A stretch of DNA of 64,000 bases from an uncultured virus (IMG/VR IMGVR_UViG_3300037343_000250) (IMGVR_UViG_3300037343_000250:1-64000), one strand, 5' to 3'. Positions 20,618-45,183 are shown, numbered from the stretch's first letter. Notes: generated by a model from the sequence alone, not told the origin. Made by a program: numbers and translations.

Positions 20618-21538
20618 ATGAGTTCATTACTAGAACGAATGCAGAAATCAGGGGCAATCAAAACTTCTGCCATACTTAGCGAGTCTACATTTTTCAATAC
20701 CAAAGATGTTATTCCTACCGACCTACCAATTTTGAACATCGCATTTAGTGGTTCGTTAGATGGGGGCCTTATACCTGGGCTTACAGTGTTCGCTGGCCTA
20801 AGCAAAAGCTTCAAAACATTGCTGGCACTATATTGTATGAAGGCATATTTTAACAAATATCCTGATGCAGTCGCACTTCTTTACGATTCGGAATTTGGCG
20901 TCACACCAGATTATTTGGCGACAAATGGCATTGATGCTGGTAGGGTTATACATATACCAGTTGAGCATGTAGAGCAATTGAAATTTGATATTGTGAAACG
21001 GCTCGAAGAAATTAAACGTGGTGATAAAGTTTTCATCATGGTGGATTCTTTGGGAAACCTTGCTTCTAAAAAAGAAGTAGATGATGCGGAAAATGAAAAG
21101 TCAGTAGCAGATATGTCAAGAGCAAAAGCTATTCGTTCTTTGCTAAGAATCATAACTCCACACTTGACTATGAAAGATTTGCCATGTATACTGATAAATC
21201 ATGTATATACTGAAATTGGCCCAATGTATGCAAAAACTATCATCCCAGGAGGTTGCTTGGCCAAAAATACCAATATTGTAATGCATGATGGTTCTCTTAG
21301 AAAAGTTCAAGACATTTCAGCAGGTGATGAGGTTTTGACATTGGAAGGCCCCAAGGAAGTTATAGAATCTTGGAACCCAAACACATTAGAAAATGGAACC
21401 CCAGAGTGTTTTGAAATTATATTTGAAGATGATCATTCTGTAGTATGTTCACACAACCACCCGTTTTTGACAACAAAGGGTTGGGTCAAGGCGAGTGAAC
21501 TCACTGATTCCCATGATATCGTTTCATTAGACGTATAG
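20618..21538 (+). CDS. uvsX: UvsX recombinase N-terminal part fused to split-intein N fragment (IntN 21254-21535)
   Basis: GLSKSFKT P-loop; YDSEFG; DSLGNLASKKE; then GG|CLAKNT...VCSHNHPFLT..GW (intein blocks A and B). Confidence 0.93.
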   Translation: MSSLLERMQKSGAIKTSAILSESTFFNTKDVIPTDLPILNIAFSGSLDGGLIPGLTVFAGLSKSFKTLLALYCMKAYFNKYPDAVALLYDSEFGVTPDYLATNGIDAGRVIHIPVEHVEQLKFDIVKRLEEIKRGDKVFIMVDSLGNLASKKEVDDAENEKSVADMSRAKAIRSLLRIITPHLTMKDLPCILINHVYTEIGPMYAKTIIPGGCLAKNTNIVMHDGSLRKVQDISAGDEVLTLEGPKEVIESWNPNTLENGTPECFEIIFEDDHSVVCSHNHPFLTTKGWVKASELTDSHDIVSLDV

Positions 21539-21586
21539 AAAAGTCCGTTCTTATAAATAAACTTATGCGACGTATAGGATTATTAA

Positions 21587-22555
21587 ATGAACGTAGTTTA
21601 CATGACAATTATAAAAGATAGAAAAGAAAAAAATTTAGAGCCGTATTATTATATCGGCTCTAAAGCAAACTGCTTTTTTGACGGTACTAATATAATAACA
21701 AATTCTGGGAAAAAATATTTCGGTTCATCCAGATGGAAAGGATATAAACAATTATGTATTGAAGGTGATGTAGAAACCATAATTCTTGGTTATTTTGAAG
21801 ATTATGACAATGCATTAGATTTCGAAAAAAATCTACACATTTTTTTGGATGTTGTATCTGATACGAAATATTTCAATAAAGCAGTGGCCACCATATCAAA
21901 TTATTCAAACCCAGAATATGGCACATATCGAAATGCCAGAACGGGCGATTTCGTCAAATTAAAAAAAGATCATCCTCTGGTCATAAACGGGGAGTACGTA
22001 AATGCAAATTATGGATATAAAACCTATAACGACGGCAATGTAGAGAAACAATTTTTGGATGAACCGCCTGATGGTTGGAGTAAGGGCCGTATTGATTCAA
22101 ACAAGAGATATGGCGAAGATTCTTCATTCTACGGTAAAATGCACACCCAAGATTCTAAATGTAAAATGTTGGTTACAAGAAAAAACTTTTACGATGAAAA
22201 TCCAGAACGATATGCCGAAGTTAAAAAAATAAATTCTGAAGTTGCCATAAAGAATTTCAGAGGAGTTCCAAAAAGCCCCGAATCTAATAAAAAGAGATCG
22301 AGGAAAGATATGATAATGTTAAAAAATAAAAACACTGGCGTTGCTATTCGAATAAAAAAAGAAGAAATGTGTGACTATGATTTGACAATATGGCAAAATC
22401 CGTATAAACTTGCTCATGAAGGTAAACCAAATAAGTCCCGTTGGGCTACCAATGGCGATTCAAATATTAAATTGAAAGCAGAAGAGCCTTTGCCAAAAGG
22501 TTTCTATTATGGTCGTAAAAATCGGTATAAAAAGGATGAAAGACTTGAAAATTAA
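21587..22555 (+). CDS. free-standing GIY-YIG (Seg-like) homing endonuclease
   Basis: VVYM...YYYIGSK, YFGSS, E..LH....V.....YFN; NUMOD-like repeats; TATAAATA at 21552. Confidence 0.8.
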   Translation: MNVVYMTIIKDRKEKNLEPYYYIGSKANCFFDGTNIITNSGKKYFGSSRWKGYKQLCIEGDVETIILGYFEDYDNALDFEKNLHIFLDVVSDTKYFNKAVATISNYSNPEYGTYRNARTGDFVKLKKDHPLVINGEYVNANYGYKTYNDGNVEKQFLDEPPDGWSKGRIDSNKRYGEDSSFYGKMHTQDSKCKMLVTRKNFYDENPERYAEVKKINSEVAIKNFRGVPKSPESNKKRSRKDMIMLKNKNTGVAIRIKKEEMCDYDLTIWQNPYKLAHEGKPNKSRWATNGDSNIKLKAEEPLPKGFYYGRKNRYKKDERLEN

Positions 22556-23081
22556 ATCTATTAAGAGTGTAGGAAAAAAAGAAGTATATGATATAACAGT
22601 GAAAGATGTTCATCATTATGTGTTGGAAAATGGGGTAGTAACACATAATACAGCGGTAACTTACTCATCAAATCAAATTTTTGTGATTGGCAAAGCGCAA
22701 GAAAAAGAAGGTACAGAAATCGCTGGATACAAATTCACAATCAATATTGAAAAATCAAGATTTGTGAGAGAAAAAGCCAAACTGCCATTTACAGTATTGT
22801 ATGAGACAGGCATCCAAAAATGGTCATCACTTTTCGATTTGGCTATAGAATATGGTAGCATCGTAAAGATAAACCAAGGGTGGTATAGCACTGTAGATAT
22901 GGAAACAGGCGAGATCAATGAAAGCAAAAGACGCGCCAAAGACATTGAAACAGATGACAAATTTTTCAAAAAGTTGATATCGGACCCAGTATTTAAGAAA
23001 TTTATTGAAAGCAAGTTTAAAATGAATCAAAACGGAGTCATACCCAATGATGATGTGGAGGTGGATGAAGAAGAGGAATAA
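22545..23081 (+). CDS. uvsX: split-intein C fragment (22545-22649) fused to UvsX C-terminal part
   Basis: KIKSIKSVGKKEVYDITV..VHHYVLENGVVTHN|TAVTYSSNQIF...EKSRFVREK; TTG start inferred from SD spacing (ATG 22536 is the alternative). Confidence 0.92.
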   Translation: MKIKSIKSVGKKEVYDITVKDVHHYVLENGVVTHNTAVTYSSNQIFVIGKAQEKEGTEIAGYKFTINIEKSRFVREKAKLPFTVLYETGIQKWSSLFDLAIEYGSIVKINQGWYSTVDMETGEINESKRRAKDIETDDKFFKKLISDPVFKKFIESKFKMNQNGVIPNDDVEVDEEEE

Positions 23082-23086
23082 TAAGA

Positions 23087-24469
23087 ATGTCATTGGAAAA
23101 CACTATACTTGCCAACTTACTATACAATGTTGAATACTTCCAAAAGGTTTTTCCATACATCAAAGAAGATTATTTTGACGACATATCTTCGAAAAAAATA
23201 CTGGACACATTTTCTATTTTAGTAGAAAAATACAAAGTAACACCTTCCAAAGAAGCCTTGGCGGTTTCTTTGGAAGGTAGAAAAGACCTAAACGAAAATC
23301 TATTTAAAGAAGTTATTGACAAGTTATCAGAACTGAAAGTTGACCCTGAAACCAATATTGATTGGTTGGTAGACGAGACAGAAAAATTCTGCCAAGATAA
23401 AGACCTTTTCAATTCAATTAGAAAATCTATCCTAATTCTAGATGGCAAAGACCAAGAGTTAGACAAAGGCGCAATCCCCGATCTTCTTTCAAAGTCACTG
23501 TCAATTAGTTTCGATAGTCATATCGGGCACGATTTCCTTGAAGATTTTGAATCGCGGTTTGAATACTATCATAGAAAAGAAGAACGCATTCCCTTTGATC
23601 TTGATATGTTCAATACCATCACTAAGGGTGGATTGCCAAAGAAGTCACTTACATTATTCTTAGGTGCGACTGGTACAGGCAAAAGTATTGTAAAGTGCCA
23701 TATGGCGGCGGCACATTTACTTTTTGGCAAAAATGTTCTGTATATTACGGCAGAATTGAGTGAGGAAGAAGTAGGTAGAAGAATTGATGCCAATATTTTA
23801 GACATAACACTTGATGAAATAATGGATCTACCTTTTACTGCATATACCAAAAAAATAAACAAATTCAAAGAGAATACACCTGGGAAATTGGTTATCAAAG
23901 AGTATCCTACAAGTTCTGCGCATGTTGGGCATTTCAGAAATCTATTGAATGAATTGCGACAAAAGAAAAACTTCAAACCTGACATCATATTTTTAGACTA
24001 CATAAATATATGTGCATCATCCAGAATTCGAGGGGCTGCGGCTGCGAATTCATATACTTTAGTGAAGTCAATAGCAGAAGAAGTTAGAGGCTTGGCGGTA
24101 GAGTATAATGTCCCTATTGTATCAAGTTCACAATTAAACAGGTCTGGGTTTGGAAATTCGGACGTAGATTTGACAAATACTTCAGAATGTATATACAAAC
24201 ATGAAAAAGTAACCAAATCGAATGGGGATGTAATCGAAATACAACACCTAATGCCCAACGATAGGGTACAGACTGAAGATGGTACTAAAATAGTAACAAT
24301 GGTACATCATCCCAAGTTAAAAGATTGTATATCCATAAAGACAAAAAAAGGAAAAACCATAATTGTTAGTAAAGACCATGTTTTCCCATCTAAATCAATA
24401 GACGGTCGTGTATCGAGACTTTCTTACAACGAAGGTTTGGATGTGGGCTCTTTCTTGAATAGCAAGTGA
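23087..24469 (+). CDS. 41: gp41 replicative helicase N-terminal part fused to split-intein N fragment (24188-24466)
   Basis: GATGTGKS; IKEYPT; DYINIC; QLNRSG; NTSE|CIYKHEKV...IIVSKDHVFPS...GLDVGSFL. Confidence 0.93.
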   Translation: MSLENTILANLLYNVEYFQKVFPYIKEDYFDDISSKKILDTFSILVEKYKVTPSKEALAVSLEGRKDLNENLFKEVIDKLSELKVDPETNIDWLVDETEKFCQDKDLFNSIRKSILILDGKDQELDKGAIPDLLSKSLSISFDSHIGHDFLEDFESRFEYYHRKEERIPFDLDMFNTITKGGLPKKSLTLFLGATGTGKSIVKCHMAAAHLLFGKNVLYITAELSEEEVGRRIDANILDITLDEIMDLPFTAYTKKINKFKENTPGKLVIKEYPTSSAHVGHFRNLLNELRQKKNFKPDIIFLDYINICASSRIRGAAAANSYTLVKSIAEEVRGLAVEYNVPIVSSSQLNRSGFGNSDVDLTNTSECIYKHEKVTKSNGDVIEIQHLMPNDRVQTEDGTKIVTMVHHPKLKDCISIKTKKGKTIIVSKDHVFPSKSIDGRVSRLSYNEGLDVGSFLNSK

Positions 24470-24479
24470 AAGGTAGTAT

Positions 24480-25052
24480 ATGATGAATGAAAAATTGGAA
24501 TCCGTATGTTATCTAAAAGCAGAGCATATGATAATCAACGGAATGGTAAAAGATATGGATGTGTTTCAGCTAACAGATCTATTGATATCCATAGAAATTG
24601 AAAAGATAGAAAAGCAGCAAATAGAAGACTGCAAAATAGACTATGATGATGAGATCGTAGAGATTTCAGAAGTTGGTGAATTAGAAACTGTTGATATATC
24701 TGTAACCGGAAACCAGCTATTCTATTGCAACGACATATTAACAAAAAATAGTATGGGCATAACACATACAGCGGATGCCATATTTGCCTTAATAACATCG
24801 GAAGATCTTGAAAATATGGGGCAACTCATGATCAAGCAGCTAAAAAATAGATGGGGTGATATCAATGTAAATCGTAGATTTGTGATAGGTCTTGATAAGC
24901 CAAGAATGAAACTGCGCAATTTAGATGCAAGTGTCCAAAAAACAGTAATGAATGAGAATAATAGTCATACTGAAAATATAAGTCAAGACAATAACTATAA
25001 TAACATACATAAGATTAAGAAAAACAAATTATTTGATGTAGGAGATTTTTAA
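24480..25052 (+). CDS. 41: extended split-intein C fragment (to 24749) fused to gp41 C-terminal part
   Basis: DEIVEISEVGELETVDISVTGNQLFYCNDILTKN|SMGITHTAD...KQLKNRWGD. Confidence 0.92.
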   Translation: MMNEKLESVCYLKAEHMIINGMVKDMDVFQLTDLLISIEIEKIEKQQIEDCKIDYDDEIVEISEVGELETVDISVTGNQLFYCNDILTKNSMGITHTADAIFALITSEDLENMGQLMIKQLKNRWGDINVNRRFVIGLDKPRMKLRNLDASVQKTVMNENNSHTENISQDNNYNNIHKIKKNKLFDVGDF

Positions 25053-25246
25053 TGAGCTATACTGTTATACGCAACGAAAAGCAGCATTTTGATATTGTAG
25101 AAAAGGTGACGCAGACGACTATTAAATTAAGTGCAAATGAAACAAGTGCAGAAAACATTTGCAAAAATCTTAACACAGGTGCTGGATTCCGTGGTTTCAC
25201 GCCACATTTTTTTGCGGATTTGAATTTTAAAAGGATTAAAACATGA
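25052..25246 (+). CDS. hypothetical protein
   Basis: coupled ORF; LN.GAGF.GFTP.FF motif. Confidence 0.7.
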   Translation: MSYTVIRNEKQHFDIVEKVTQTTIKLSANETSAENICKNLNTGAGFRGFTPHFFADLNFKRIKT

Positions 25247-25779
25247 TTATTATAGAAGGCAGGGAAGAAACTTTTGATGTCGTTAGGTCAAAAATTGAGG
25301 CTCTTAAAGGATCTTATTTGGTTGACATAGATACCATAACAAAAGTCCAGCTAAAAGGTGGAAAAAAGAATCCAATGCAAGGCAAAGTAACTAAGTTGGT
25401 CGCTGGTTCTAAAGTTGTTTTGTGCTCAAATGTAAAGAATGCTTATGAAAGTATGGTAAAATCCCGCATGGAAAAAGAAGGCAAAGACCCTGAAGAATTT
25501 GTTCTCAAACCACGCCCATGGGGAAGTAGAATCGAAGACACGCCTTTTGTAGAACACAAAGGCAACTTTTACATAGAGTGCTTTTTTAAAGAATCTGGTG
25601 CTTCGACATATTTCTTAGATGGCGAACCAATTGAAAAAGATGATATTGAAGGGTTGGAGCCTCCTAAATCGTCAGAAGAATCACAAGGTGGTATCAGTGA
25701 CAAGGTTATTATCCGAACATATGCCATGGAATCGATTGAAAGAATGGTTGTTCTTTCAGAAATACAAAATATAGAGTGA
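25243..25779 (+). CDS. conserved-type phage hypothetical protein
   Basis: KGGKKNPMQG...YE.MV..R..KEG..F....RPWG. Confidence 0.75.
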   Translation: MIIIEGREETFDVVRSKIEALKGSYLVDIDTITKVQLKGGKKNPMQGKVTKLVAGSKVVLCSNVKNAYESMVKSRMEKEGKDPEEFVLKPRPWGSRIEDTPFVEHKGNFYIECFFKESGASTYFLDGEPIEKDDIEGLEPPKSSEESQGGISDKVIIRTYAMESIERMVVLSEIQNIE

Positions 25780-25794
25780 TGGGAAATATAACGC

Positions 25795-27417
25795 ATGGAT
25801 GAAGATATCAACAAGCAAGACGAGGATAAAAACCAACAAATAGTAGACCTCTACAAAACTATCATAGCAGAAAAGAAAGGGTTGCCTGTATATAAAGATT
25901 TTCTTGTGCATGGCATAACCAGAGATATACTAAGAGGAAGATTTGGTGGAATAGAAACCCTTCATCAATTTGTAAAAGACAATCACGAAGAATTTCTTTC
26001 AGAGCATTTCTTTTCAGTTGATGACATATTTGCATCTAATAAAAACTTGATTAACAGCAACAAAAAAGTGTTTATTGTAACTACTGCGGTAGGAAACTGT
26101 AAGGCCCATCACGGGTTTCTTGATGCTATTAAGACATTTTGCAAAAGAAATGATGCGCAGGCTGCAATCATGCCTTGTGAAAGCATAACCAATAGTTTCG
26201 AAAACAAAACTGCAGTTTTTGATCCAGTATTCAGTGATCCCTCATATTTGTTTGTTCAAGCAGACACGCCATTAAACGAAAACATTTCGCTATGTAGTAT
26301 TCAAGTTTCGGCAAAACAAATTAAACCAATTACTGGGTTATCACGACTCGGAAACCGTGAAGGGTCTAATATTTTTGCAAGTCCTAAACAATTCTTAGAA
26401 TATATTCCTGCTGGGAACAGTAGAGGTAAAAACTATTCAATAATGACAACAGGTGCTTGTACTTTACCTCAATACTATTCTGATTTTTTTATGTCAAAGA
26501 GATTGTCATATATTGCAGATTTCGACCACAAGATGGGTGCTATAATTGTAGAAATTGAAGATGATAAGTTATTTCATTTTAGACAAATACAATGTGATGA
26601 AAGCGGTGCTTTTGTTGATCTTGGTAAGATGTATATGCCAAATGGTCAGGTCAAAGACATACCAATTAATATTGTATTTGGGGATCTTCATGGAACAAGT
26701 GTGGATAAAGACGCACTTGATGCATTCATCAACACCTTTTCAAAAATGAAAGTAAAAAGCATTTATCTACATGATGTATTTGATGGGTACAGTATTAGCC
26801 ATCATGTCAAATCTATAGTAGAAAGAAGCCAAAGGGCATTGAGCGGCGAAGAAGATTTGCATGATGAGCTCGAACAAACCTTCGATTTAATTAAAAGCAT
26901 TGATATTGCTTTAAAACCAAGCAAGATATATATCGTAAAATCTAACCACGATGAATTTCTCACAAGATACATATCAAGCGGTAGATATGTTGAAGACCCC
27001 AAAAACCACTACCTATCATTGAAGATTGCAACTGCACTTTTTGAAGATGAAGACGTGTTGAAGCGCGGGTTCAAGTTGACTAATAATAAGATACCTAATA
27101 GTTGGGTTTTCTTATCAAGGGATGACTCTTCAAAGGTAGCAAATATAGAATGTGGTTCTCATGGCGATTTGGGGTTGAATGGTGCTAAACCATCACTTAA
27201 TGGCTTAGAACAGGTGTATGGTGATTGTGTGGTAGGACATAACCACACAGGCGCAATACAAAGGGGAGTGTTTAGAGTTGGTACTGTTTCCAAACTAGAT
27301 TTAGGCTATAATAGAGGGCCTTCATCTTGGACTCACACCTCTTGCTTGGTGGCAGAAAATGGGCAGAGACAGCTTATTAATGTCATAAATGGAAAATGCA
27401 CCAATTTGCAGTTGTGA
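25795..27417 (+). CDS. large calcineurin-like metallophosphoesterase
   Basis: GDLHG, HDVFDG, SNHDE, HGD, GHNH. Confidence 0.75.
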   Translation: MDEDINKQDEDKNQQIVDLYKTIIAEKKGLPVYKDFLVHGITRDILRGRFGGIETLHQFVKDNHEEFLSEHFFSVDDIFASNKNLINSNKKVFIVTTAVGNCKAHHGFLDAIKTFCKRNDAQAAIMPCESITNSFENKTAVFDPVFSDPSYLFVQADTPLNENISLCSIQVSAKQIKPITGLSRLGNREGSNIFASPKQFLEYIPAGNSRGKNYSIMTTGACTLPQYYSDFFMSKRLSYIADFDHKMGAIIVEIEDDKLFHFRQIQCDESGAFVDLGKMYMPNGQVKDIPINIVFGDLHGTSVDKDALDAFINTFSKMKVKSIYLHDVFDGYSISHHVKSIVERSQRALSGEEDLHDELEQTFDLIKSIDIALKPSKIYIVKSNHDEFLTRYISSGRYVEDPKNHYLSLKIATALFEDEDVLKRGFKLTNNKIPNSWVFLSRDDSSKVANIECGSHGDLGLNGAKPSLNGLEQVYGDCVVGHNHTGAIQRGVFRVGTVSKLDLGYNRGPSSWTHTSCLVAENGQRQLINVINGKCTNLQL

Positions 27418-27420
27418 GAA

Positions 27421-27456
27421 AAGAGGCGACCAGTATAACCAACTGGTCGCCTTTTA
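27421..27456 (+). terminator. rho-independent terminator
   Basis: GGCGACCAGT-loop-ACTGGTCGCC-TTTT. Confidence 0.75.
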
Positions 27457-27566
27457 TATTAGGTATGCAAAAAATGCATGTTAGATATGCTATAATAAAT
27501 TACAATTTACTCTCTTTTTAGTGTAATGTAGATATAAATAAGTACATCAATAAGATAGGAAATGAC

Positions 27567-27716
27567 ATGAGGTTTTTAAGAAATATTTTTGGATACAATA
27601 GTGTATCCATTGACATTAATATAATGAGATGGGCAAAAACAGAGTATAAAAAAGACTATCTGTTTGCTTACTATGAAATTACAAATGGTAGAATTCCATT
27701 TACTGGTATTATATAA
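27567..27716 (+). CDS. small hypothetical protein, 49 aa
   Basis: late promoter and AGGA SD; manual translation MRFLRNIFG...WAKTEY. Confidence 0.55.
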   Translation: MRFLRNIFGYNSVSIDINIMRWAKTEYKKDYLFAYYEITNGRIPFTGII

Positions 27717-27886
27717 TGAAAAACACAATCAAATGGCTTCGTGACTTTATTTTCAAATCCCATGACGATGAGTATAATTATTTGGCATCATCAGAAAACC
27801 TTGAAGAATTAGAAAGAAGGCAGCGTCTTTTGTCGAAAGGTGATGCACCGATACAGAAGTATAATAGGTTTCTTGCCAAAATATAA
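27716..27886 (+). CDS. small hypothetical protein, 56 aa (DUF3563-like)
   Basis: TAATG coupling; YLASSENLEELERRQR motif. Confidence 0.55.
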   Translation: MKNTIKWLRDFIFKSHDDEYNYLASSENLEELERRQRLLSKGDAPIQKYNRFLAKI

Positions 27887-27904
27887 AAATCAAATCGAGA
27901 ACTG

Positions 27905-27930
27905 AAAAGGGGGCATCGCGCCCCCTTTTT
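27905..27930. terminator. bidirectional-type terminator
   Basis: A-run, G-run stem, C-run, T-run. Confidence 0.7.
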
Positions 27931-28000
27931 GTATAAATAGATTAAAGTGCAATTTGCGCTATCATAAATACACATATTATCTTATTCAGAGGAAATCGAA

Positions 28001-30085: not shown

Positions 30086-30110
30086 TTCTTACCCACAAAA
30101 GGACAATAAA

Positions 30111-30809: not shown

Positions 30810-30810
30810 A

Positions 30811-31542: not shown

Positions 31543-31635
31543 AGCATTTGGATAAACACCAAATGCTTTTTCTTATAAATACAAGTGACATAATTAAATA
31601 AATTGCAATAGTCCAGTTAACAAAAAGAGGCTCAA

Positions 31636-32674: not shown

Positions 32675-32675
32675 T

Positions 32676-34031: not shown

Positions 34032-34035
34032 TTAT

Positions 34036-34717: not shown

Positions 34718-34735
34718 ATTCTAAAGGAAATAGGC

Positions 34736-35599: not shown

Positions 35600-35600
35600 T

Positions 35601-35942: not shown

Positions 35943-35949
35943 AGGCTAA

Positions 35950-36429: not shown

Positions 36430-36721
36430 TGCTTGTTCAGTTGGCCCGAAAGATATTGCAGTAACACCAATTGAGATACGAACAGTTGAAGTCAGTAAAC
36501 CTAAACCTATTGTTCCTAAAGTAGACCAGCTTGGCCTTAAAAGTGTCAAATGGATTATCGTCACGCCTGAAAACATAAATCATTTGTTTGATGATATGAA
36601 TGGCGAAAAAGTTCTTTTTGCATTGACATCTGAAGGGTACGAAAATATTGCATTCAATTTATCTGATATTATGGCTATGATTAGGCAACAGCAAAAAGTA
36701 ATAGCAATTTACAAAAAGTAG
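36386..36721 (+). CDS. outer-membrane spanin lipoprotein (Rz1-like)
   Basis: lipobox LLSAC then a Pro-rich segment. Confidence 0.75.
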   Translation: MSNVLGFGLVIILLSACSVGPKDIAVTPIEIRTVEVSKPKPIVPKVDQLGLKSVKWIIVTPENINHLFDDMNGEKVLFALTSEGYENIAFNLSDIMAMIRQQQKVIAIYKK

Positions 36722-36745
36722 ATTACAAAAGGTATAAATAATCTT

Positions 36746-37033
36746 ATGGAAGATGGTAAAAAAAATTGGCTGCGGACGCATTGGAGGCCAATGATGGCAG
36801 TTGTATATATGATTATTATTCTATTTGATTTTGTCGTAGCTCCTATACTTTGGAGTTTAATTCAAGTTTGGGGTTCTGGTAGTGTTGCATTACAATGGAC
36901 TCCTCTAACATTAATAGCTGGTGGTGTCTTTCATGCTGCTATGGGCGCGGTTTTGGGAATTAGTGCTTTCACAAGAGGCCAAGAAAAGATACAAAGGATA
37001 AAGGCAGATTATGACGGGCAATCAGATGAATGA
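36746..37033 (+). CDS. putative holin
   Basis: WRP.MA..Y; TM helices; GAVLGISAFTRGQEK; inside the lysis cluster. Confidence 0.7.
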   Translation: MEDGKKNWLRTHWRPMMAVVYMIIILFDFVVAPILWSLIQVWGSGSVALQWTPLTLIAGGVFHAAMGAVLGISAFTRGQEKIQRIKADYDGQSDE

Positions 37034-37487
37034 TAATGAAACAAATTCTATCAAAACAGACATAGCCCTAATAAAAAAAGATGTTAAGCAGATTGAACGG
37101 GTGTTCCAAAAAATTGATGATGCTGTCATGCAAATGACTAACGTAATAAAAAATATAGCTGTTCAGGAAAACATTCTGCAAAATAACGAAAAAAGAATTG
37201 CGAGTCTCGAAGAAAAGTCTATGAAGAATACCCAAGGCGAACTAGATTTTCGTAAAGAATTAAATCAAAAGTTGGAAGATATGAAAAATGTATCTGACCA
37301 TGAAAGAGATAGAAGGCATAAAGAGGTTCTTGATGCCATCAATAAGTCAAACCAAAAACTAAGTGACAAGCTAGACCATCAAGATAAACGTATAAATTCT
37401 CTGGAAAACTGGAGATGGTACATACTTGGTATAGGTGCAGTCATAATTTTTATCTTGTCAAAATTTCCTTTTTCATCATTTTTCTAG
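37026..37487 (+). CDS. coiled-coil protein with C-terminal TM helix
   Basis: heptad pattern; RINSLENWRWYILG. Confidence 0.7.
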   Translation: MNDNETNSIKTDIALIKKDVKQIERVFQKIDDAVMQMTNVIKNIAVQENILQNNEKRIASLEEKSMKNTQGELDFRKELNQKLEDMKNVSDHERDRRHKEVLDAINKSNQKLSDKLDHQDKRINSLENWRWYILGIGAVIIFILSKFPFSSFF

Positions 37488-37560
37488 TTGACAAGTGCTT
37501 GCACTATGTATATAATCAATGTTATATTGAATGATATAGTAAGTAAGAGATAAAATAAAC

Positions 37561-38586
37561 ATGGTTGACTATATTGATCTACAGCACGTTATGATGCTGT
37601 CTAATAAACTTGAGCGTTTTTCTATCAAAAATAAATCCCCTTATCGCATTAACTTTAGATGCATATATTGTGGTGATTCACAAACCTCCAAATCAAAAGC
37701 AAGAGCTTGGTTTCTTGAAGACAAATATCAGTCGTTTAGGTATTTTTGTCATAACTGCGGCGAGAGTCATTCTTTCGTTTCATTCTTGCGTGGGTTTGAC
37801 ACTATGGCGTATAATTCATACATTACCGATAAATATGTCAATGATGTATCAAGGGTAGATGCGCCCCCAACAGCAAGAATAGAACTAACCAAAGAACCGC
37901 CAAAATTAAGTATTAACCATCTATCTAAGATCAAAAAAATCAGTCAGTTGAAATTTGATCATCCAGCAAAACTGTATATCCAATCAAGAAAAATTCCAAC
38001 CGACCAGCATTACAGGATATTTTATGCGCCCAAGTTTAAGACTTGGGTAAATTCTATTATACCAGAAAAATTAATATTTACAAGAGATGAGCCTAGAATT
38101 GTCATCCCCTTTCTAGATAGTAAAGGAAAAATGTTTGGCTTTACGGGTAGGGGATTTGACCCTAATGGATTACGATATCTCACTATCATGATAGATGAAA
38201 AGCCAAAAATATTTGGTCTGGATAAAGTCGATTCGAAAAAACAATATTATGTACTCGAAGGTGCGATAGATAGTTTGTTTGTTCCAAATTCTATTGCAAT
38301 GGCGGGTGCTGATGGTAATCTTTCAGGGCTAGATAATGTTGAAAATGCGGTTTTCGTTTTTGATTTGGAATACAGAAACAAAGAAATTATGAAACGTGTC
38401 GAAAAAATAATTGACAAAGGCATGAAAGTATGCTTGTTCCCTAAAGGGATGACAAAGTATGGAAAAGACATAAATGATTTTGTATCAAGTGGATTATCAT
38501 CATCTTATATTGTGGACATGATCAAGAAAAACGTGTATAGTGGTTTAGAAGCTAAGATAAAGCTGATCGATCTCAAAAACTGTTAA
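37561..38586 (+). CDS. 61: DNA primase gp61
   Basis: FRCIYCGDS...CHNCG zinc ribbon; TOPRIM EGAIDS; KDIND; consensus promoter 37488-37516. Confidence 0.95.
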   Translation: MVDYIDLQHVMMLSNKLERFSIKNKSPYRINFRCIYCGDSQTSKSKARAWFLEDKYQSFRYFCHNCGESHSFVSFLRGFDTMAYNSYITDKYVNDVSRVDAPPTARIELTKEPPKLSINHLSKIKKISQLKFDHPAKLYIQSRKIPTDQHYRIFYAPKFKTWVNSIIPEKLIFTRDEPRIVIPFLDSKGKMFGFTGRGFDPNGLRYLTIMIDEKPKIFGLDKVDSKKQYYVLEGAIDSLFVPNSIAMAGADGNLSGLDNVENAVFVFDLEYRNKEIMKRVEKIIDKGMKVCLFPKGMTKYGKDINDFVSSGLSSSYIVDMIKKNVYSGLEAKIKLIDLKNC

Positions 38587-38599
38587 CAACGGGGTAAAT

Positions 38600-39295
38600 G
38601 TGTTGAAACTAATAAACGGCGATTGTCTACTAGAGATCAAAAAAATTGAAAGTGGGTCTGTTGATATGGTAGTTACAGACCCGCCATATGGTATGAATTT
38701 TGTGTCTAATGCAGCAAAAGAAGGTCCAAGACATAAAGCCATTAATGGTGATGATAAGGTAAATACAGAATGGATTTCAGAAGCTTTTCGCGTATTAAAA
38801 GATGGTGGTGGTTTCGTCACATTTTGTGACTGGAATACAAGTCACATTTGGCGGGAGTCTATTGAAAAAAACGGATTCAATTTGCGTTCACAAGGTGTTT
38901 GGAATCGTATGCATCATGGCATGGGCGATTTGACAGGGGCTTTTGCACCTATGCATGATATTATCTGGTATGCATCAAAAGGACGAAGAATCTTTGACAA
39001 CAAACGATTGAAGTCTGTTTTTTCACATCGTAGACCAAGCCCATCCGAAGATAATGGGCATCCGACTTGCAAACCAGTTAGCCTCATGGAAGAAATTATT
39101 CATGGGATTGGTGATGGTTCTAATGGCATTGTTTTAGATCCATTCATGGGTTCAGGTAGTACAGGTGTAGCAGCAAAGAAATTGAACTTGCCATTTGTAG
39201 GAATAGAGTTAGATGAAACATATTTTGCAACTGCACAGAAAAGAATAAATGGCACAAGTGGATTGATAGATTTTTTTAATATGGGGGAAATATGA
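38600..39295 (+). CDS. N4-C/N6-A DNA methyltransferase (beta class)
   Basis: TDPPYG...HPTCKP...LDPFMGSGST. Confidence 0.92.
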   Translation: MLKLINGDCLLEIKKIESGSVDMVVTDPPYGMNFVSNAAKEGPRHKAINGDDKVNTEWISEAFRVLKDGGGFVTFCDWNTSHIWRESIEKNGFNLRSQGVWNRMHHGMGDLTGAFAPMHDIIWYASKGRRIFDNKRLKSVFSHRRPSPSEDNGHPTCKPVSLMEEIIHGIGDGSNGIVLDPFMGSGSTGVAAKKLNLPFVGIELDETYFATAQKRINGTSGLIDFFNMGEI

Positions 39296-39990
39296 AAATT
39301 AAGAATGGTGAATTTTGGCTTGGCGATTGTCTTGAATTGATGAAAGATATTCCTGATGGTTCTATTGATATGGTCATAACCGACCCACCATACAAGATGA
39401 CAAAAACAGGAAACTCATCAAGACCAAATTATATGCCAAACGGGTTTATAATAGGTGACAGTTTACCAGATACAAGAATTTGGTTCGAAGAAGTATTCAG
39501 AGTCATGAAAGATTCTACTCATTTTTACACATTCACAAATCGAAATGACTTGCGTAACTATTTAAACATAGCTGATGAAGTTGGATTTCATTTTCATAAC
39601 ATTATAAACATGATAAAAGATACAAATATGCCAAACAGATGGTATTTAAAATACACTGAACCAGTCTTATTTTTTAAAAAAGGTAAAGCAAAAGCAATAC
39701 ATGATATGACTAGTAGAGATTATCAACATGTAAAAATGCTAAAAGGTATTGATAAGATGCACCCAACTGAAAAACCATTATCTTTTATACAAAAGTTAAT
39801 AACTAACTCTTCTGTTGTAGGTGACATCGTTCTAGACCCATTTGCTGGTTCTGGCACAACTGCTGTTGCTGCTGAAAAGAATAATCGCAAATGGATTTGT
39901 ATAGAACAAAACAAAAAATATTATGATATAGCAACAAATAGAGTAATGGAAATGCATGTACACCAATCACACAATTTTTTTGGAGAATGA
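39292..39990 (+). CDS. N4-C/N6-A DNA methyltransferase (beta class)
   Basis: TDPPY...HPTEKP...LDPFAGSGTT. Confidence 0.92.
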   Translation: MKIKNGEFWLGDCLELMKDIPDGSIDMVITDPPYKMTKTGNSSRPNYMPNGFIIGDSLPDTRIWFEEVFRVMKDSTHFYTFTNRNDLRNYLNIADEVGFHFHNIINMIKDTNMPNRWYLKYTEPVLFFKKGKAKAIHDMTSRDYQHVKMLKGIDKMHPTEKPLSFIQKLITNSSVVGDIVLDPFAGSGTTAVAAEKNNRKWICIEQNKKYYDIATNRVMEMHVHQSHNFFGE

Positions 39991-40475
39991 ATATGACAGT
40001 AAATGCTATTTTAGCGCATGATAATAAATATGGTATAGGAAAAGATGGTGTTCTACCATGGCCACATTCCTCAGCTGATATGAAATGGTTTAGAGAATGT
40101 ACTAATGGCCATATTGTAATTATGGGTAGAAAAACATGGGAAAGTATCGGTAGTAAAAATCTACCAAAAAGAATGAATATCGTAGTCACAAGATCAGAAA
40201 TTATAGGCTCCCCTAAATATACTTGGTTTGGTGACATGAAGGAACTCATCGAAAATTTAAAAATGGAGTATCCAAACCTTAAAATCTGGATCATTGGCGG
40301 CGCTGATATTTATAGGCAAACCCTTCATCTATGCGACAACATTTTTGTGACTAAGATTGATGGTGATTATGATTGTGATGCATTTGTAGATATGAATATG
40401 TATCTTAATGGTTATGATAAGACGGCAGTAAACAAACAAGATGGGTTAGAATTTAGTATTTGGAGTAAGAATTGA
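39987..40475 (+). CDS. frd: dihydrofolate reductase
   Basis: GIGKDG.LPW..DMKWF; MGRKTWES; LPKR.N; IIGGA. Confidence 0.95.
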   Translation: MNMTVNAILAHDNKYGIGKDGVLPWPHSSADMKWFRECTNGHIVIMGRKTWESIGSKNLPKRMNIVVTRSEIIGSPKYTWFGDMKELIENLKMEYPNLKIWIIGGADIYRQTLHLCDNIFVTKIDGDYDCDAFVDMNMYLNGYDKTAVNKQDGLEFSIWSKN

Positions 40476-41362
40476 AACAATATCATATGCTACTAAAAGA
40501 TATTTTAGAAAACGGTGAAAATGTAAGTGACAGAACAGGGACAGGAACCCGTACCTTATTCGGTCGTCAAATGCATTTTAATCTTGTAGATGGGTTTCCA
40601 GCGGTAACAACAAAAAAACTTGCATGGAAATCTGTTGTTGGTGAATTGCTTTGGATGCTTGAAGGAAGCACAGATGAACGTAGGCTTGCCGAACTAACTT
40701 ATGGTAAGCCCAGAAAAGATTTAGTTGGAAGAAATACAATTTGGACTGCCAACGCAGATAATCAAGGTGTTGCGTTAGGATATGAAAATAACGATTCTAA
40801 AAAAGAGCTGGGGCCAATTTATGGGGAAATTTGGCGAAATTTTGACTATTTCAGAGGATCAGAATGTGGTGTTGACCAAATACTGCAAATTATCGAACAA
40901 ATAAAAGAAACACCAGATTCAAGGAGAATCATATTATCTGCTTGGAATCCTTTGTTAATTCCTGAAATGTCATTGCCGCCTTGTCACTACACCGCGCAAT
41001 TTCGTGTGGTAAATGGCAAACTAAGTTGCATGATGACACAAAGATCTGGCGATTTATTTTTAGGAATCCCGTTTAATATCGCAAGTTATGCTCTCTTGAC
41101 ACATATTATTGCTCGTGAATGTGGTTTGGAAGTAGGAAATTTTGTACATTCTATCGGTGATGCGCACATATATAATGATCACTTTGATCAGGTAAAAGAA
41201 CAACTGCTAAGAGAAGAATATGCTTTACCTACACTTGAAATTGGTGTAGAGTTTGACCTTATGGATAGACTACGCAATGGCTTTAAACTCGAAGATTGCC
41301 CTCTATTTACTCTTAAAAATTATGTACATCATCCCACAATAAAAGCACCAATGGCAGTATAA
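40472..41362 (+). CDS. td: thymidylate synthase (ThyA type), uninterrupted
   Basis: DRTGTGT; LPPCH; QRSGDLFLGIPFNIASY; GDAHIY. Confidence 0.96.
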   Translation: MKQYHMLLKDILENGENVSDRTGTGTRTLFGRQMHFNLVDGFPAVTTKKLAWKSVVGELLWMLEGSTDERRLAELTYGKPRKDLVGRNTIWTANADNQGVALGYENNDSKKELGPIYGEIWRNFDYFRGSECGVDQILQIIEQIKETPDSRRIILSAWNPLLIPEMSLPPCHYTAQFRVVNGKLSCMMTQRSGDLFLGIPFNIASYALLTHIIARECGLEVGNFVHSIGDAHIYNDHFDQVKEQLLREEYALPTLEIGVEFDLMDRLRNGFKLEDCPLFTLKNYVHHPTIKAPMAV

Positions 41363-41463
41363 ACACTAAACTTGGTATTTTGACATGTATAAATACACAT
41401 CCCAGCACAACATATAGTAAATATATATTTGCTATCAAACAATTTTAACACTAAGAGGTACTG

Positions 41464-43083
41464 ATGACTATAATTATTAAACGAGATGGACGCAAAGAGC
41501 AGTTAGATTTGAACAAAATACATACTGTTGTTGAATGGGCTTGTGACAAGATTACAGGGGTGTCTATTTCGGAAGTTGAACTGAAATCACAAATTCAATT
41601 TTATGCAGGTATTACGAGTGAAGAAATTCATGAAACTCTTATCCGTTCAGCATCCGAATTAATTTCAGAAGAAACCCCTAACTATCAATTTGTTGCATCA
41701 AAGTTGATTAACTTTGATCTTCGTAAGCGAGCATATGGGCATTATGAGCCTTGGCATATCAAAGATATCGTAAAGCGAGGCGTTCAGAAAGGTTTTTATA
41801 ACCCTGACTTACTTTCTGTATACAATGATGAAGATTGGGCGTTTATGGAGGGTGTCATAAATCACAATAGAGACTATGAAATTTCATATGCTGGTATGGT
41901 GCAGTTCAGGACCAAGTATCTCGTAAAAAATAAATCGACTATGGAGTATTTCGAAACACCGCAAATTGCATACATGTTGATTGCTGCTAGTGGTTGTATT
42001 TCTGAAGAAAGTAAAGATAGACTTAAATTTATCAAGAAAATTTATAACCATCTTTCCAAGTTTGATTTTACACTGCCAACACCTATCATGGCAGGATTGC
42101 GGACTAATGTAAAACAATTTTCATCTTGTACTTTAATTGATGCTGGTGATTCACTTGATTCGATCAATGCTGCCGCATCGGCTATTGTAAAATACGCAGC
42201 CAATAAAGCAGGTATTGGTTTGAATATCGGAAGAATTCGCGCGGTTGGCTCTCCAATCCGTAATGGTGAAGTTACCCATACTGGTGTAGTGCCATTTATA
42301 AAATATTTCAATGCTGCGCTAAAAAGCTGCAATCAGGGTGGAGTTCGCAATTCAAGCGGCACATTTTATTATCCAATGTGGCATTATGAATATGAAGATA
42401 TGATTGTACTAAAAAATAACAAAGGTACAGAAGACACGCGAGTTAGATCAGTAGATTATGGCGTTCAACTTAACAGATTTTTGATTCAAAGGCTAATCGA
42501 AGATGGCAACATTACTCTGTTTTCGCCCAACGATGTACCAGACCTTTATGAGGCTTTTTTCACAAATCAAGAATTGTTTGGAGAACTTTATGTCAAATAT
42601 GAAAATGACAGTAGTATTCGTAAAAAAACAATAACTGCTATTGAGGCGTTCAGTGTCCTTGCGCAAGAAAGAGTTGAGACAGGTCGCATCTATATTCAAT
42701 TTGTTGACAACACAAACGAGCAAGGTATGTTAGGCGAAGAAAATCCAGTATATATGAGTAATTTGTGTTTAGTCGGTGATACCAAAATTGATGTGATTTG
42801 TGATAATCAACCATTTAAAATTAATATAGAAGACTTGGGTAATTTTATGCGCAAGTATGATAACGTGGTGGTCAAGTCTTACAATACGGATACGAAGGCT
42901 GTTGAATATATGCCTATTGAAGCGTTTGGTCTCACAAACCCCGACGCAGATTTATATCAAGTAACTACCGATGATGATACACATAGTGTAGTGTGTACGA
43001 GCGATCATTTATTCTGGACTGATAATAGAGGATATGTGGCAGCAATAGATTTGACTGAAGAAGATAGAATAAAAACATTATAG
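41464..43083 (+). CDS. nrdA: class Ia ribonucleotide reductase alpha N-terminal part fused to split-intein N fragment (42766-43080)
   Basis: ATP cone; PTPIMAG; QFSSC; QGGVR; SNL|CLVGDT...CTSDHLFWT.NRGYV.A. Confidence 0.94.
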   Translation: MTIIIKRDGRKEQLDLNKIHTVVEWACDKITGVSISEVELKSQIQFYAGITSEEIHETLIRSASELISEETPNYQFVASKLINFDLRKRAYGHYEPWHIKDIVKRGVQKGFYNPDLLSVYNDEDWAFMEGVINHNRDYEISYAGMVQFRTKYLVKNKSTMEYFETPQIAYMLIAASGCISEESKDRLKFIKKIYNHLSKFDFTLPTPIMAGLRTNVKQFSSCTLIDAGDSLDSINAAASAIVKYAANKAGIGLNIGRIRAVGSPIRNGEVTHTGVVPFIKYFNAALKSCNQGGVRNSSGTFYYPMWHYEYEDMIVLKNNKGTEDTRVRSVDYGVQLNRFLIQRLIEDGNITLFSPNDVPDLYEAFFTNQELFGELYVKYENDSSIRKKTITAIEAFSVLAQERVETGRIYIQFVDNTNEQGMLGEENPVYMSNLCLVGDTKIDVICDNQPFKINIEDLGNFMRKYDNVVVKSYNTDTKAVEYMPIEAFGLTNPDADLYQVTTDDDTHSVVCTSDHLFWTDNRGYVAAIDLTEEDRIKTL

Positions 43084-43094
43084 TACAATGAAAT

Positions 43095-43134
43095 ACCTCT
43101 TTGCATAAATAAAATTAGTTAAATGCAAAGAGGT
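43095..43134 (+). promoter_or_regulatory. RBS-sequestering hairpin with a late-promoter-like CATAAATA
   Basis: ACCTCTTTGCAT/ATGCAAAGAGGT perfect 12-bp inverted repeat covering GAGG. Confidence 0.75.
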
Positions 43135-43139
43135 GCTAC

Positions 43140-44129
43140 ATGAACTATCGTAAACTACATGACAAATTTATAAATTATTTTATAAATACCGCCCCTAAAG
43201 AAAGGTTAATGGCAAAAAATAATATAGACAAAAGGCTTGATAAAGAGAATTTATATGTGGAGATTCATCATATAATTCCTAAACATGATGGTGGGTGCGA
43301 TTCGCCACATAATCTTGTTACTCTATTACCCGAAGAACACGTCTTCATACATAAGCTAAGATACAAGGCTTACGGTCAAAGAGGTGATATGCTTTCTGTT
43401 AGGTTTGTTCTTAATGGTATGAAAAGCAATGCTAGATTTAATGTTGATGGGTCTAACATGCACCTTACTAAGTATATATTAGGCGGATATGCGTTCATAA
43501 AAAGTAATTCATCTGAATTCAGAAAAAAAGTTGGGTGGCATACGCCAAATGGAGCTAAAAAAATATCCGAATCGAGGAAAGGCAATATGCCAGTGAAAGA
43601 TGTTGATACTTTAAAAATTATAGGTTCAGTAAGTTGCCAACACCCTAAAGTGATATCGGGTCAGTGGGTCCACCATAGTAAAGGTGTAAAATACACAGAT
43701 GAAAGAAAATTATCTATGGTAAATGGTAGTGGGGATAAAAATAATAACTATTCTGGTTATGATGATGACCAACTCATTTTAAACTTTATCGAAATATGCA
43801 ATAAATTAGGATATATACCAGGTCATAAAACAGCAACAGATTTTGGGGTTGAAAATAATATATATTTTCCTAAGTCAATAAAAGATTTTAGGTTTGATGG
43901 AGATGGCTTTCGTGGTATGATACAAATAGTGGAAGAAAAAACAGGTCTAAAATATGACCCATACTATACCAGAAGATCTGGTCGTGTGAAAATAATAAGC
44001 GGAAAACGTTGTTGGGTTACTGACGGCGTTAATAGCAAATCAATCTCTTTTATTGATTTGAATGAATATAATCTAATAGGATGGAAAAAAGGAAGAACAT
44101 TATATGGCAAAAGTAATAAAATTAAATAA
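43140..44129 (+). CDS. free-standing HNH homing endonuclease (MobE-like)
   Basis: MNYRKLH..; EIHHIIPKHDGG.D..HNLV.L..EEH..IH; NUMOD-like C-terminal motifs. Confidence 0.88.
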   Translation: MNYRKLHDKFINYFINTAPKERLMAKNNIDKRLDKENLYVEIHHIIPKHDGGCDSPHNLVTLLPEEHVFIHKLRYKAYGQRGDMLSVRFVLNGMKSNARFNVDGSNMHLTKYILGGYAFIKSNSSEFRKKVGWHTPNGAKKISESRKGNMPVKDVDTLKIIGSVSCQHPKVISGQWVHHSKGVKYTDERKLSMVNGSGDKNNNYSGYDDDQLILNFIEICNKLGYIPGHKTATDFGVENNIYFPKSIKDFRFDGDGFRGMIQIVEEKTGLKYDPYYTRRSGRVKIISGKRCWVTDGVNSKSISFIDLNEYNLIGWKKGRTLYGKSNKIK

Positions 44130-45183
44130 AAGAGCCCCAGTATATGATATAACAGTAGCAGAAAATCATAACTTTTTTGCTAATGGCGTTTTAGTGCATA
44201 ATTGCGCCGAAGTCGTACAGACCACAAAGCCAATGCAAAGTATTAGTGATGTTGACGGACTAATATCATTGTGCACACTTGCTGCATATAATATGGGCAA
44301 TATTAAAACGCCTGATGATTTTGAAAAACTTTCAAAAGTAGTTGTAAGGTTTTTAGATAATGTTTTGACATATCAGACTTATCTTCTACCATCCGCACTT
44401 TCATCAACATTGAAGTATCGTAACATTGGTATTGGAATATCGAATTTGGCATACTTTTTAGCCAAAAACAATTACAAATATACAGGCGAAGACACACCAA
44501 AATTCTTACATCCATATATGGAGGCAATGGGGTATTATACTATTAAAGCGTCGGCTGAACTTGCACAAGAAAGAGGTTCTTTTGATGCTTTTTCCACTAC
44601 TAAATGGGCCAAAGGTAAATTGCCCATTGATACATATCGCAAAGCTGTTGATAGTATTGTAGAAAACGATTTGTTGCTTGACTGGAATGCATTACGCGAA
44701 ATTACTAGCAAAGGCATGAGAAATGCTACAATACTGAGCTTGATGCCTGTTGAAACTTCGAGTCAGTTGGTTAATGCTACTAATGGTGTTGAGCCGCCCC
44801 GTGGACTTATTTCTGTCAAGAATTCAAAGGATGGTTCTATGAAGCAAGTTGTTCCAGAGATTCAACGGCTGAAAAATAAATATGATCTTTTGTGGGATCA
44901 AAAATCACCTACTGGTTATCTAAATATTATGGCCACGATACAAAAGTTTGTGGATCAATCTATTTCTACGAACACATCTTACAATCCCGAATTTTATCCA
45001 AGCAATGAAATTCCACTTATGGTCATACTTGGTGACATCATTTATGCTTGCAAAATGGGAATTAAGACACTATACTATTGCAACACATATGATATGTCTG
45101 GTGAAGTAAAATTAGATGAGCCGCTATCTGTAAATGAAGTCACAGACGGCGATGATGATTATTGTGAATCTTGCGTACTATAA
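44104..45183 (+). CDS. nrdA: split-intein C fragment (33 aa, to 44202) fused to NrdA C-terminal part
   Basis: PVYDITVAENHNFFANGVLVHN|CAE; LCTL; NATNGVEP; KTLYY; CESC. Confidence 0.94.
   Translation: MAKVIKLNKRAPVYDITVAENHNFFANGVLVHNCAEVVQTTKPMQSISDVDGLISLCTLAAYNMGNIKTPDDFEKLSKVVVRFLDNVLTYQTYLLPSALSSTLKYRNIGIGISNLAYFLAKNNYKYTGEDTPKFLHPYMEAMGYYTIKASAELAQERGSFDAFSTTKWAKGKLPIDTYRKAVDSIVENDLLLDWNALREITSKGMRNATILSLMPVETSSQLVNATNGVEPPRGLISVKNSKDGSMKQVVPEIQRLKNKYDLLWDQKSPTGYLNIMATIQKFVDQSISTNTSYNPEFYPSNEIPLMVILGDIIYACKMGIKTLYYCNTYDMSGEVKLDEPLSVNEVTDGDDDYCESCVL

Follow-up and report, generated by a model that had tools for sequence, protein, structure and literature searches.

Split inteins in the uvsX, gp41 and nrdA genes of a T4-like phage from a metagenomic virus record

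Three genes in two pieces

The stretch analysed here, referred to throughout as the window, comprises bases 1-64000 of a 71.5-kb uncultured virus record (IMG/VR IMGVR_UViG_3300037343_000250) that is estimated to be about 35% complete. Within it, uvsX, gp41 and nrdA are each present as two open reading frames (ORFs), one ending in the N-terminal half of an intein (IntN) and the other beginning with the C-terminal half (IntC), and all six ORFs were found where an original prediction, made from the sequence alone, had placed them (Table 1). The IntN lengths it gave, 94 amino acids (aa) for UvsX, 93 for gp41 and 105 for NrdA, were reproduced, as were the junctions GG/C...HN/T for UvsX, SE/C...KN/S for gp41 and NL/C...HN/C for NrdA (a slash marks the splice site), which leave Thr, Ser and Cys as the +1 residues. 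The loci also belong, as predicted, to the known type of fractured genes (Dassa 2009, PMC2677866). Judged by its gene content, which includes gp32, UvsX, gp41, NrdA/B and other T4-type genes, 10 tRNA genes and many TATAAATA motifs, the phage is T4-like; its terminase and polymerase genes lie outside the contig.

Continuity of the exteins across the breaks was evident at two of the genes. For uvsX, the junction is directly visible from an empty allele found in genome G001, a relative 97-99% identical to the window whose gp41 and nrdA are split while its uvsX is whole (355 aa; locus L007), and in a contig from sequencing run X10, which skips from 21253 to 22668; the length of the intact L007 gene equals N-extein plus C-extein exactly (636+432=1068 nucleotides, nt). 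For NrdA, the Pfam Ribonuc_red_lgC match stops at profile position 212 in the N-terminal piece and restarts at 212 in the C-terminal piece. The uvsX and gp41 breaks recur in loci L008, L009 and L010 and the nrdA break in genomes G001 and G002, of which L010 and G002 are 99.98-100% identical to the window and may not be independent. Read coverage proposed for each break was available as assembled contigs rather than raw reads, and bore out the prediction at two of the loci: a contig from run X7 spans the split uvsX (28 differences) and contigs from X4 and X10 span the gp41 gap, the X10 run also holding the empty uvsX allele. The runs containing at least half of the uvsX-gp41 stretch (9 of 24 rows, three of the nine being possible sources of the window DNA) are labelled "salt lake metagenome", and none of the runs listed is an RNA run.

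Curated intein models passed their cut-offs for four of the six halves. TIGR01445 (intein N-terminal; cut-off 24.5) scored 25.7 for UvsX-N and 25.0 for NrdA-N, and at 18.8 gp41-N fell under it; TIGR01443 was over cut-off for UvsX-C and NrdA-C, with no match listed for gp41-C. The gp41 halves were placed by a family profile, whose IntN matches the gp41-1 structure 6QAZ (E-value 8e-22), and by our own intein profile, which included them; a single gp41 IntN as query gave no match in PDB sequences or cultured phages. The two TIGR models each miss one half in whole-record scans, so intein counts from such scans are lower bounds. With our own profiles, no further intein half was found in the 71.5-kb, roughly one-third complete record or in three adjoining stretches of G001 and G002. 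All three inteins bear class 1 marks, namely Cys1, block B T/SxxH (SxxH, SxxH and TxxH), block F Asp, a terminal Asn and a +1 Cys, Ser or Thr, and in each the halves lie on separate ORFs with the break between blocks B and F; the penultimate and block F His are present in the UvsX and NrdA IntC. Class 1 splicing chemistry is well established, and each enzyme is most likely made as two polypeptides that would be joined by class 1 trans-splicing. The +1 Cys of NrdA is catalytic, and ribonucleotide reduction should therefore need splicing.

Intervening endonuclease genes, a known part of this arrangement, were found at uvsX and nrdA but not at gp41, where only a 10-nt gap separates the halves. 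The uvsX nuclease has no Pfam match; it matches an ORF within the split uvsX of phage CF-SP2 (31% over 193 aa), and from inspection of its motifs we take it to be GIY-YIG-like. Its ORF overlaps that of UvsX IntC by 47 or 20 nt, according to the IntC start used. The nrdA nuclease matches the HNH endonuclease within the split nrdA of phage TG1 (44% over 223 aa). At the gp41 gap, no significant hairpin was detected (z +0.3), and tblastn found no nuclease remnant there.

Table 1. Positions of the split genes and intein parts in the window, with the three-piece gp41 loci of relatives in the last row (RBS, ribosome-binding site)
Feature	Position	Strand	Details
uvsX N-extein	20618..21253	+	212 aa, ends GG; Pfam RecA E 2e-9; 13 differences/636 nt from intact L007
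UvsX IntN	21254..21538	+	94 aa, Cys1, block B SxxH, net charge -11; TIGR01445 over cut-off
Late-promoter motif TATAAATA and hairpin over nuclease RBS	21552..21584	+	z -3.2; 1/200 shuffles as stable
uvsX free-standing homing endonuclease	21587..22555	+	322 aa; PHROG 7504 E 1e-15
UvsX IntC	22509..22649	+	ends HN; TIGR01443 over cut-off; 47 aa (ATG 22509) or 38 aa (ATG 22536), start unsure
uvsX C-extein	22650..23081	+	+1 Thr; Pfam T4_UVSX_C
gp41 helicase N-extein	23087..24187	+	367 aa, ends SE; Pfam DnaB_C E 5e-15
gp41 IntN	24188..24469	+	93 aa, Cys1, family motif HHxKxK, block B SxxH, net charge +5
gp41 gap	24470..24479	+	10 nt, RBS-like AAGGT, without nuclease gene
gp41 IntC extension	24480..24644	+	about 55 aa at IntC N-terminus, predicted helices 2-19 and 28-52
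gp41 IntC core	24645..24749	+	35 aa, block F Asp, no block F His, penultimate Lys, net charge -8
gp41 C-extein	24750..25052	+	+1 Ser; PHROG 19 E 8e-12; Foldseek T4 gp41 8GAO/8DTP
nrdA N-extein	41464..42765	+	434 aa, ends NL; Pfam ATP-cone, Ribonuc_red_lgN/lgC
NrdA IntN	42766..43083	+	105 aa, Cys1, block B TxxH, net charge -11; TIGR01445 over cut-off
13-bp hairpin over nuclease RBS	43094..43135	+	z -5.3; 0/200 shuffles as stable
Late-promoter-like variant CATAAATA	43104-43111		at stem-loop border of nrdA hairpin
nrdA free-standing HNH endonuclease	43140..44129	+	329 aa; Pfam HNH over cut-off; PHROG 655 E 8e-17
NrdA IntC	44104..44202	+	33 aa, ends HN; TIGR01443 E 1e-12; 26-nt overlap with nuclease ORF
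nrdA C-extein	44203..45183	+	+1 Cys at thiyl-radical site; Pfam lgC resumes at 212
Three-piece gp41 loci	L140:1401-5479, L187:127-3255, L256:34-4125, L263:1-2035		

The gp41 intein family and its relatives

At 90 aa against the roughly 35 expected, the full gp41 IntC of the window carries an N-terminal extension, and it ends KN/S without either of the usual C-terminal His residues. AlphaFold2 predicted the two helices of the extension with confidence (predicted local distance difference test 86-97), with a whole-chain predicted template modelling score of 0.37; Foldseek searches with this model returned matches only to the helicase part, and a complex prediction of IntN with IntC core and extension scored 0.21, below the mark of 0.32 for a reading in either direction. 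When residues 1-92 were used as a query, 134 proteins were retrieved, and among the 120 listed, nearly all of which carry the extension, every one ends TKN/S (118 by pattern and 2 by eye). We examined 162 loci, found both halves in 108, and retained 62 distinct loci including the window and three near-copies. IntC length is 86-113 aa in 60 of the 61 measurable loci. The remaining locus, L197:9306-10008, has an SE/S-site intein with a 42-aa IntC ending VKN/S, and what separates its halves is not a nuclease but an ORF of 145 aa that has an HPD motif and looks DnaJ-like by eye.

Residues of the splicing site are strongly conserved across the family: Cys1 and the block B Ser and His occur in 62 of 62 loci, and the terminal Asn and +1 Ser are kept (the search pattern required Asn-Ser). 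The penultimate His is absent from all 62 and the block F His from 61, and the IntN has His40 in 59 and His41 in 57; the count for the TKN ending is partly circular in that the locus-search patterns contained TKN. The two missing His residues are the usual helpers of inteins (Mills 2014, PMC4031507), yet AceL NrdHF splices well without both (PMC7891396); an NX His has been described in cysteine-less inteins (PMC10189870), and the gp41-family HH pair is a candidate match to it.

Queried by itself against 1.84 billion proteins, the extension produced 21 matches, 18 of them directly ahead of such an IntC (one ending THN); the other three were a 40-aa fragment, a protein with an unrelated tail and a repeat protein. 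Pfam searches of 38 extension sequences hit eight families with one member each, with no match for the window's own extension, and in the ESM Atlas residues 1-60 matched only unnamed clusters (best score 0.85). A LAGLIDADG-linked cluster (0.76) was below any useful level. Longer fused proteins with both extension and IntC were found in 0 of 160 candidates, which is weak evidence.

An insert of more than 1 kb lies between the halves in 35 of the 62 distinct loci and is absent from the other 27. It mostly consists of an ORF of about 350 aa that belongs to PHROG 22677 (function unknown), the C-terminal part of which, by eye, we take to resemble Vsr-like nucleases. On a quick tree, from which L197 was left out, 14 insert gains or losses are needed, at least 6 of them forced by starred branches, and the window groups with the nuclease-less loci L124 and L125 (support 95), sharing 32-34 of 50 extension residues. 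The ratio of nonsynonymous to synonymous substitution (dN/dS) in the extension was 0.095 over 43 pairs that are not independent, equal to that in IntN (0.090) and in the core (0.097), and was 0.097 in nine nuclease-less pairs; judged by these ratios, purifying selection acts on the extension whether or not a nuclease is present. An origin as a nuclease remnant was rejected: loci with full-length nuclease genes have the extension intact, and loci lacking them conserve it too. The most likely role of the extension would be to aid folding or association of the intein halves, at about even odds against other roles. A bolder proposal, which we hold only tentatively and consider rather doubtful, is that the SE/S inteins form a split-intein sub-family with an accessory domain, in which partner specificity is set, or splicing gated, by the two-helix IntC module together with a rewired active site (HHxK conserved in IntN, and His missing from both block F and the penultimate position).

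More than one split intein per phage is also found elsewhere. In G005 (208 kb, 100% complete) the split genes are those of UvsX, gp41 and terminase, in G008 those of gp41, NrdA and terminase (both terminases named by our inspection), and L198 has three split inteins within 12 kb; three split inteins in one phage are thus not unique to the window and recur in relatives. Five larger records were searched whole, all reached through the gp41 intein and therefore not a random sample. The terminase-like genes (L300, G005:91016-94108, and L288/L289 in G008) are split with a short IntN and a long IntC, and that of G008 also holds contiguous inteins. At L198:11789-14120, 3 kb from the split gp41, the third split intein (HG/C ... 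HN/S) lies in a gene that by inspection we take to be RNA-ligase-like. Among 156 loci (L123-L278), four have gp41 in three ORFs, with a second split intein 12-15 residues upstream and a middle ORF made of IntC, a 12-15-residue extein and IntN; the upstream intein of L187 is by eye nearly the published gp41-1/-7 sequence. The paired inteins of these loci are 32-42% identical in IntN and 36-56% in IntC, with the same charge polarity in L140. For these loci, where a cross-reaction would leave out an essential piece or close it into a circle, specificity ought to be important, and the extension might, as a hypothesis, be what supplies it.

Probable homing and orthogonality, and competing explanations

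The three cassettes differ in their marks of homing. At uvsX, besides the empty allele, 7 of the first 18 nt after the cassette differ from that allele, compared with 20 of 1050 elsewhere (Fisher p 8e-8), as expected if flanking DNA had travelled with the cassette. The uvsX nuclease and IntC show 2/1111 and 1/1111 differences from L008 and L009 against 43/3153 and 42/3153 in the flanks (p ~2e-4 and 7e-5), and the nrdA cassette shows 0/1437 from G001 against 24/2193 in the flanking genes (p 7e-6), each comparison resting on one or two relatives. For the gp41 intein, which has no nuclease, diversity does not depart from background (13/552 vs 18/1404, p 0.11). Thus uvsX combines an empty allele, a co-conversion-like tract and low diversity, nrdA shows low diversity only, and gp41 shows none of these. 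No close empty nrdA allele was seen. In 80 related loci that were retrieved, nrdA runs uninterrupted and intein-free across the site in 77, ends there in an IntN in two and is broken in another way in one. Across the 62 gp41-family loci, uvsX is interrupted in 10 (three being the window and two near-copies, and L198 having been assigned by hand), intact in 30 and not scorable in 22.

We consider it probable, at roughly 80%, that three independent selfish cassettes accumulated in one T4-like phage and that their products are joined post-translationally by class 1 trans-splicing. Each cassette would go back to an intein inserted at a conserved motif and later divided by a free-standing homing endonuclease gene; an unsplit 129-aa mini-intein at the window's uvsX site in L308 agrees with the published model, in which an invading nuclease gene causes the split. 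The enzyme halves would associate through their intein halves and then be spliced, with Cys1 passing the chain to the +1 Thr, Ser or Cys, as the motifs suggest. The uvsX and nrdA cassettes, which still carry a nuclease, would spread by homing into empty alleles, with the nuclease probably held back by the hairpin over its RBS and expressed late, as in the precedents of Dassa 2009 and Aeh1. The gp41 cassette would have lost its nuclease, would now be inherited vertically, and appears to be a distinct sub-family whose IntC has a conserved two-helix domain. The three pairs would be largely orthogonal as a by-product of divergence and not as a designed checkpoint.

Several observations weigh against parts of this account. 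The nuclease-less gp41 intein persists across a clade (window, L124 and L125) that is about 35-40% diverged, so pure selfish spread alone does not explain its persistence; the extension is not universal in the gp41 family, being absent from L197, and the non-independence of the dN/dS pairs tempers the selection estimate. Asn cyclisation in the gp41 intein could also be slow, since neither block F nor the penultimate position has a His. At uvsX the sweep does not extend to the IntN (6/285 and 8/285 differences), at nrdA 700 nt of the N-extein also show no differences, and patchy recombination could mimic part of a low-diversity signal drawn from so few relatives.

The original prediction held that the six fragments need to be mutually orthogonal, which overstates the case, as the cost of some cross-splicing would be no more than wasted protein; mutual orthogonality of the three pairs is nevertheless likely from their divergence, with cross-pair identities of 18-34% for IntN and 28-45% for IntC. 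Published sets point the same way: 15 of 16 inteins were mutually orthogonal (Pinto 2020, PMC7090010), and two PolB inteins at about 35% identity showed strict orthogonality (PMC12707363). Orthogonality is the default among unrelated inteins and so would not by itself show selection. The gp41 pair is positive in IntN and negative in IntC (+5/-14), and UvsX and NrdA both have an IntN of -11 and an IntC of +2, a shared polarity that puts this pair at risk of cross-talk. That UvsX and NrdA halves cross-associate or cross-splice, with the phage tolerating the loss, would accord with this polarity, with their 34% IntN and 45% IntC identity and with the polymorphic uvsX cassette, which has perhaps left little time for co-adaptation. 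We nonetheless think it unlikely, given the published orthogonality of 15 of 16 inteins and the coexistence of split uvsX and split nrdA in cultured phage TG1.

A second element of the original prediction was a possible post-translational checkpoint on recombination, replication and dNTP supply. Retention of the split inteins for such a checkpoint, or for a sensor role, found no support in the comparison with relatives and is in our view very unlikely. All three host proteins are replication-related, and conditional splicing with a sensor role has been proposed for inteins, but the same paper noted that sensing in native hosts remained to be shown (Novikova 2015, PMC4760082). The near-identical G001 has an intact uvsX, as do 30 of the 40 scorable gp41-family loci, nearly all related nrdA loci lack the intein, both nuclease-bearing cassettes show homing-like sweeps with loss of diversity, and the set of split genes varies among relatives. 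The checkpoint would be most plausible for gp41 alone, whose intein is maintained with no nuclease beside it and carries an extra domain together with additional Cys and His residues that are conserved. Another possibility for gp41 is that its halves assemble without splicing and that the extension is a protein-interaction tail, as in NrdA-a/b of phage Aeh1, where the tails left by mobE insertion are essential (Crona 2010, PMC3045599); the lack of the two usual His would suit it. This is highly improbable in view of the Cys1 and block B Ser and His kept in every family locus, the retained terminal Asn and +1 Ser (in part a product of the search pattern), and the three-piece relatives, whose 12-15-residue middle extein would be hard to build in without ligation. 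Finally, a metagenomic contig only 35% complete might contain assembly errors or decaying pseudogenes, but the chance that the breaks are of this kind is negligible: they recur in other assemblies and run contigs, and therefore are not assembly errors, they lie at the same sites as in cultured phages, and purifying selection speaks against decay.

Comparison with known systems and implications

The fractured genes of Dassa 2009 (PMC2677866) comprise gp41-1 to -9, NrdA-1 to -7, NrdJ, IMPDH, DnaE, ligase and terminase. The window's uvsX and nrdA share with them the order IntN, free-standing nuclease, IntC on one strand, and the hairpin with TATAAATA ahead of the nuclease (in the variant form CATAAATA at nrdA); the published nuclease/IntC overlaps (6-69 bp) and IntN lengths (88-105 aa) encompass the overlaps at uvsX and nrdA and all three IntN. 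The published NrdA site, at the thiyl Cys, where the split inteins immediately precede the thiyl radical site, is that of the window, and charge polarity is alike (gp41 positive-N/negative-C, NrdA the reverse). By contrast, that set includes no split UvsX; the window's nrdA nuclease is HNH, a type absent from the set, and not GIY-YIG or Vsr-like; the published IntCs measure 33-54 aa (terminase 122), a range that includes UvsX and NrdA but not the 90-aa gp41 IntC; and the listed gp41 IntCs that reach the end finish THN, where the window has TKN. The window's gp41 lacks a nuclease, which is the "step III" state of that study, and so does gp41-7, but gp41-7 kept its hairpin and the window's locus did not; gp41-9 has Thr and not Ser at +1. 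The data of that study are short fragments, and no genome with three split genes is reported in the parts consulted.

The closest solved structure to the gp41 IntN family, gp41-1 (PDB 6QAZ), shares Cys1, Ser+1 and the host protein, but inserts 12 residues upstream of the SE/S site, lacks the extension, keeps both C-terminal His, and reads FP at the position of the HH of the window family. Its near-copy adjoins the SE/S intein in L187, and the SE/S site is distinct from the gp41-1 to -7 site, both being occupied, 12 residues apart, in L140 and L187. AceL NrdHF (PMC7891396) is likewise a fractured gene, in its case with a nuclease, that lacks both His, but it is class 3 (Ala1, block F Cys), unlike the window's gp41 with Cys1 and block F Asp. 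The nrdA of Aeh1, cut by mobE (HNH-type according to Dassa 2009), gives halves with added tails that assemble non-covalently without intein or splicing (PMC3045599), whereas the window NrdA has intein halves. Among cultured phages, CF-SP2, Lion_ER11, Thanatos-1 and TG1 have uvsX split at the GG/T site of the window, TG1 also has nrdA split, with an HNH gene, at the same NL/C site, and ESh36 has gp41 split at AE/S, with a TKN/S end and a longer, divergent extension. Their feature tables list the halves as two ordinary genes with no intein note, and all three split genes were not seen together in these five phages (only ESh36 and Thanatos-1 were scanned for inteins as whole records). The nrdA of CPt10 (L303) is flagged as a pseudogene disrupted by two coding sequences, with a protein-splicing signature; its first piece ends in an IntN like the window's and it may be a mis-annotated fractured gene. 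At L129:5052-7398, uvsX has a split intein, an 11-residue extein and then an unsplit intein at the window's GG/T site.

Elsewhere in the record, a ferredoxin-dependent bilin reductase (window 4505-5191), a heme oxygenase (17757-18308) and a 5-aminolevulinate synthase (G000 70071-71285) form a heme-to-bilin set, the last presumably pointing to an alphaproteobacterial host. A nicotinamide adenine dinucleotide (NAD) salvage pair, a nicotinamide mononucleotide (NMN) adenylyltransferase/Nudix protein and a nicotinate/nicotinamide phosphoribosyltransferase, lies at G000 64933-65967 and 66667-68127, and a 715-aa protein with an ADP-ribosyltransferase domain (window 14370-16517) is, we assume, T4 Alt-like. 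The tRNA cluster contains two nuclease-like ORFs, at 2152-3213 (-) and 8315-9070 (+), the latter with a hairpin-like repeat around TATAAATA at 8289, ahead of its start. Two N6/N4 DNA methylases lie in tandem at 38600-39990, with about five more methylase-like ORFs by eye in L120, an adjoining stretch of G002. Ferritin/Dps-like, outer-membrane beta-barrel, Clp protease and tRNA-His guanylyltransferase genes were noted at 10513-10956, 16777-17373, 51131-51739 and 54063-54905.

Nothing is new in the layout itself, a known kind of element that is present here three times over. In the literature found, judged mostly from titles and abstract starts, there was nothing on an extended gp41 IntC, split UvsX inteins or several split inteins per phage genome; against that literature, what is new is the conserved accessory domain on a natural IntC, with an active site lacking both C-terminal His. 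Were splicing constitutive and the extension no more than a folding aid, the result would be a useful but modest addition to that of 2009. Should the tentative accessory-domain reading hold, it would explain how a gp41 intein could sit within 12-15 residues of another gp41-type split intein, yielding natural three-piece helicases joined through the short middle extein, and how it could survive repeated loss of the nuclease, and T4-like genomes with at least three split inteins would be naturally selected orthogonal sets. The three-piece relatives make the question of whether nature selects intein orthogonality directly testable, and three candidate split inteins with Thr, Ser and Cys nucleophiles would coexist in one infection, at a time when orthogonal sets are sought in protein engineering, a field for which split inteins are core tools. 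On the reading favoured here, the life cycle of a fractured gene would have been caught within one population, as a polymorphic (uvsX), a swept (nrdA) and a nuclease-less (gp41) cassette.

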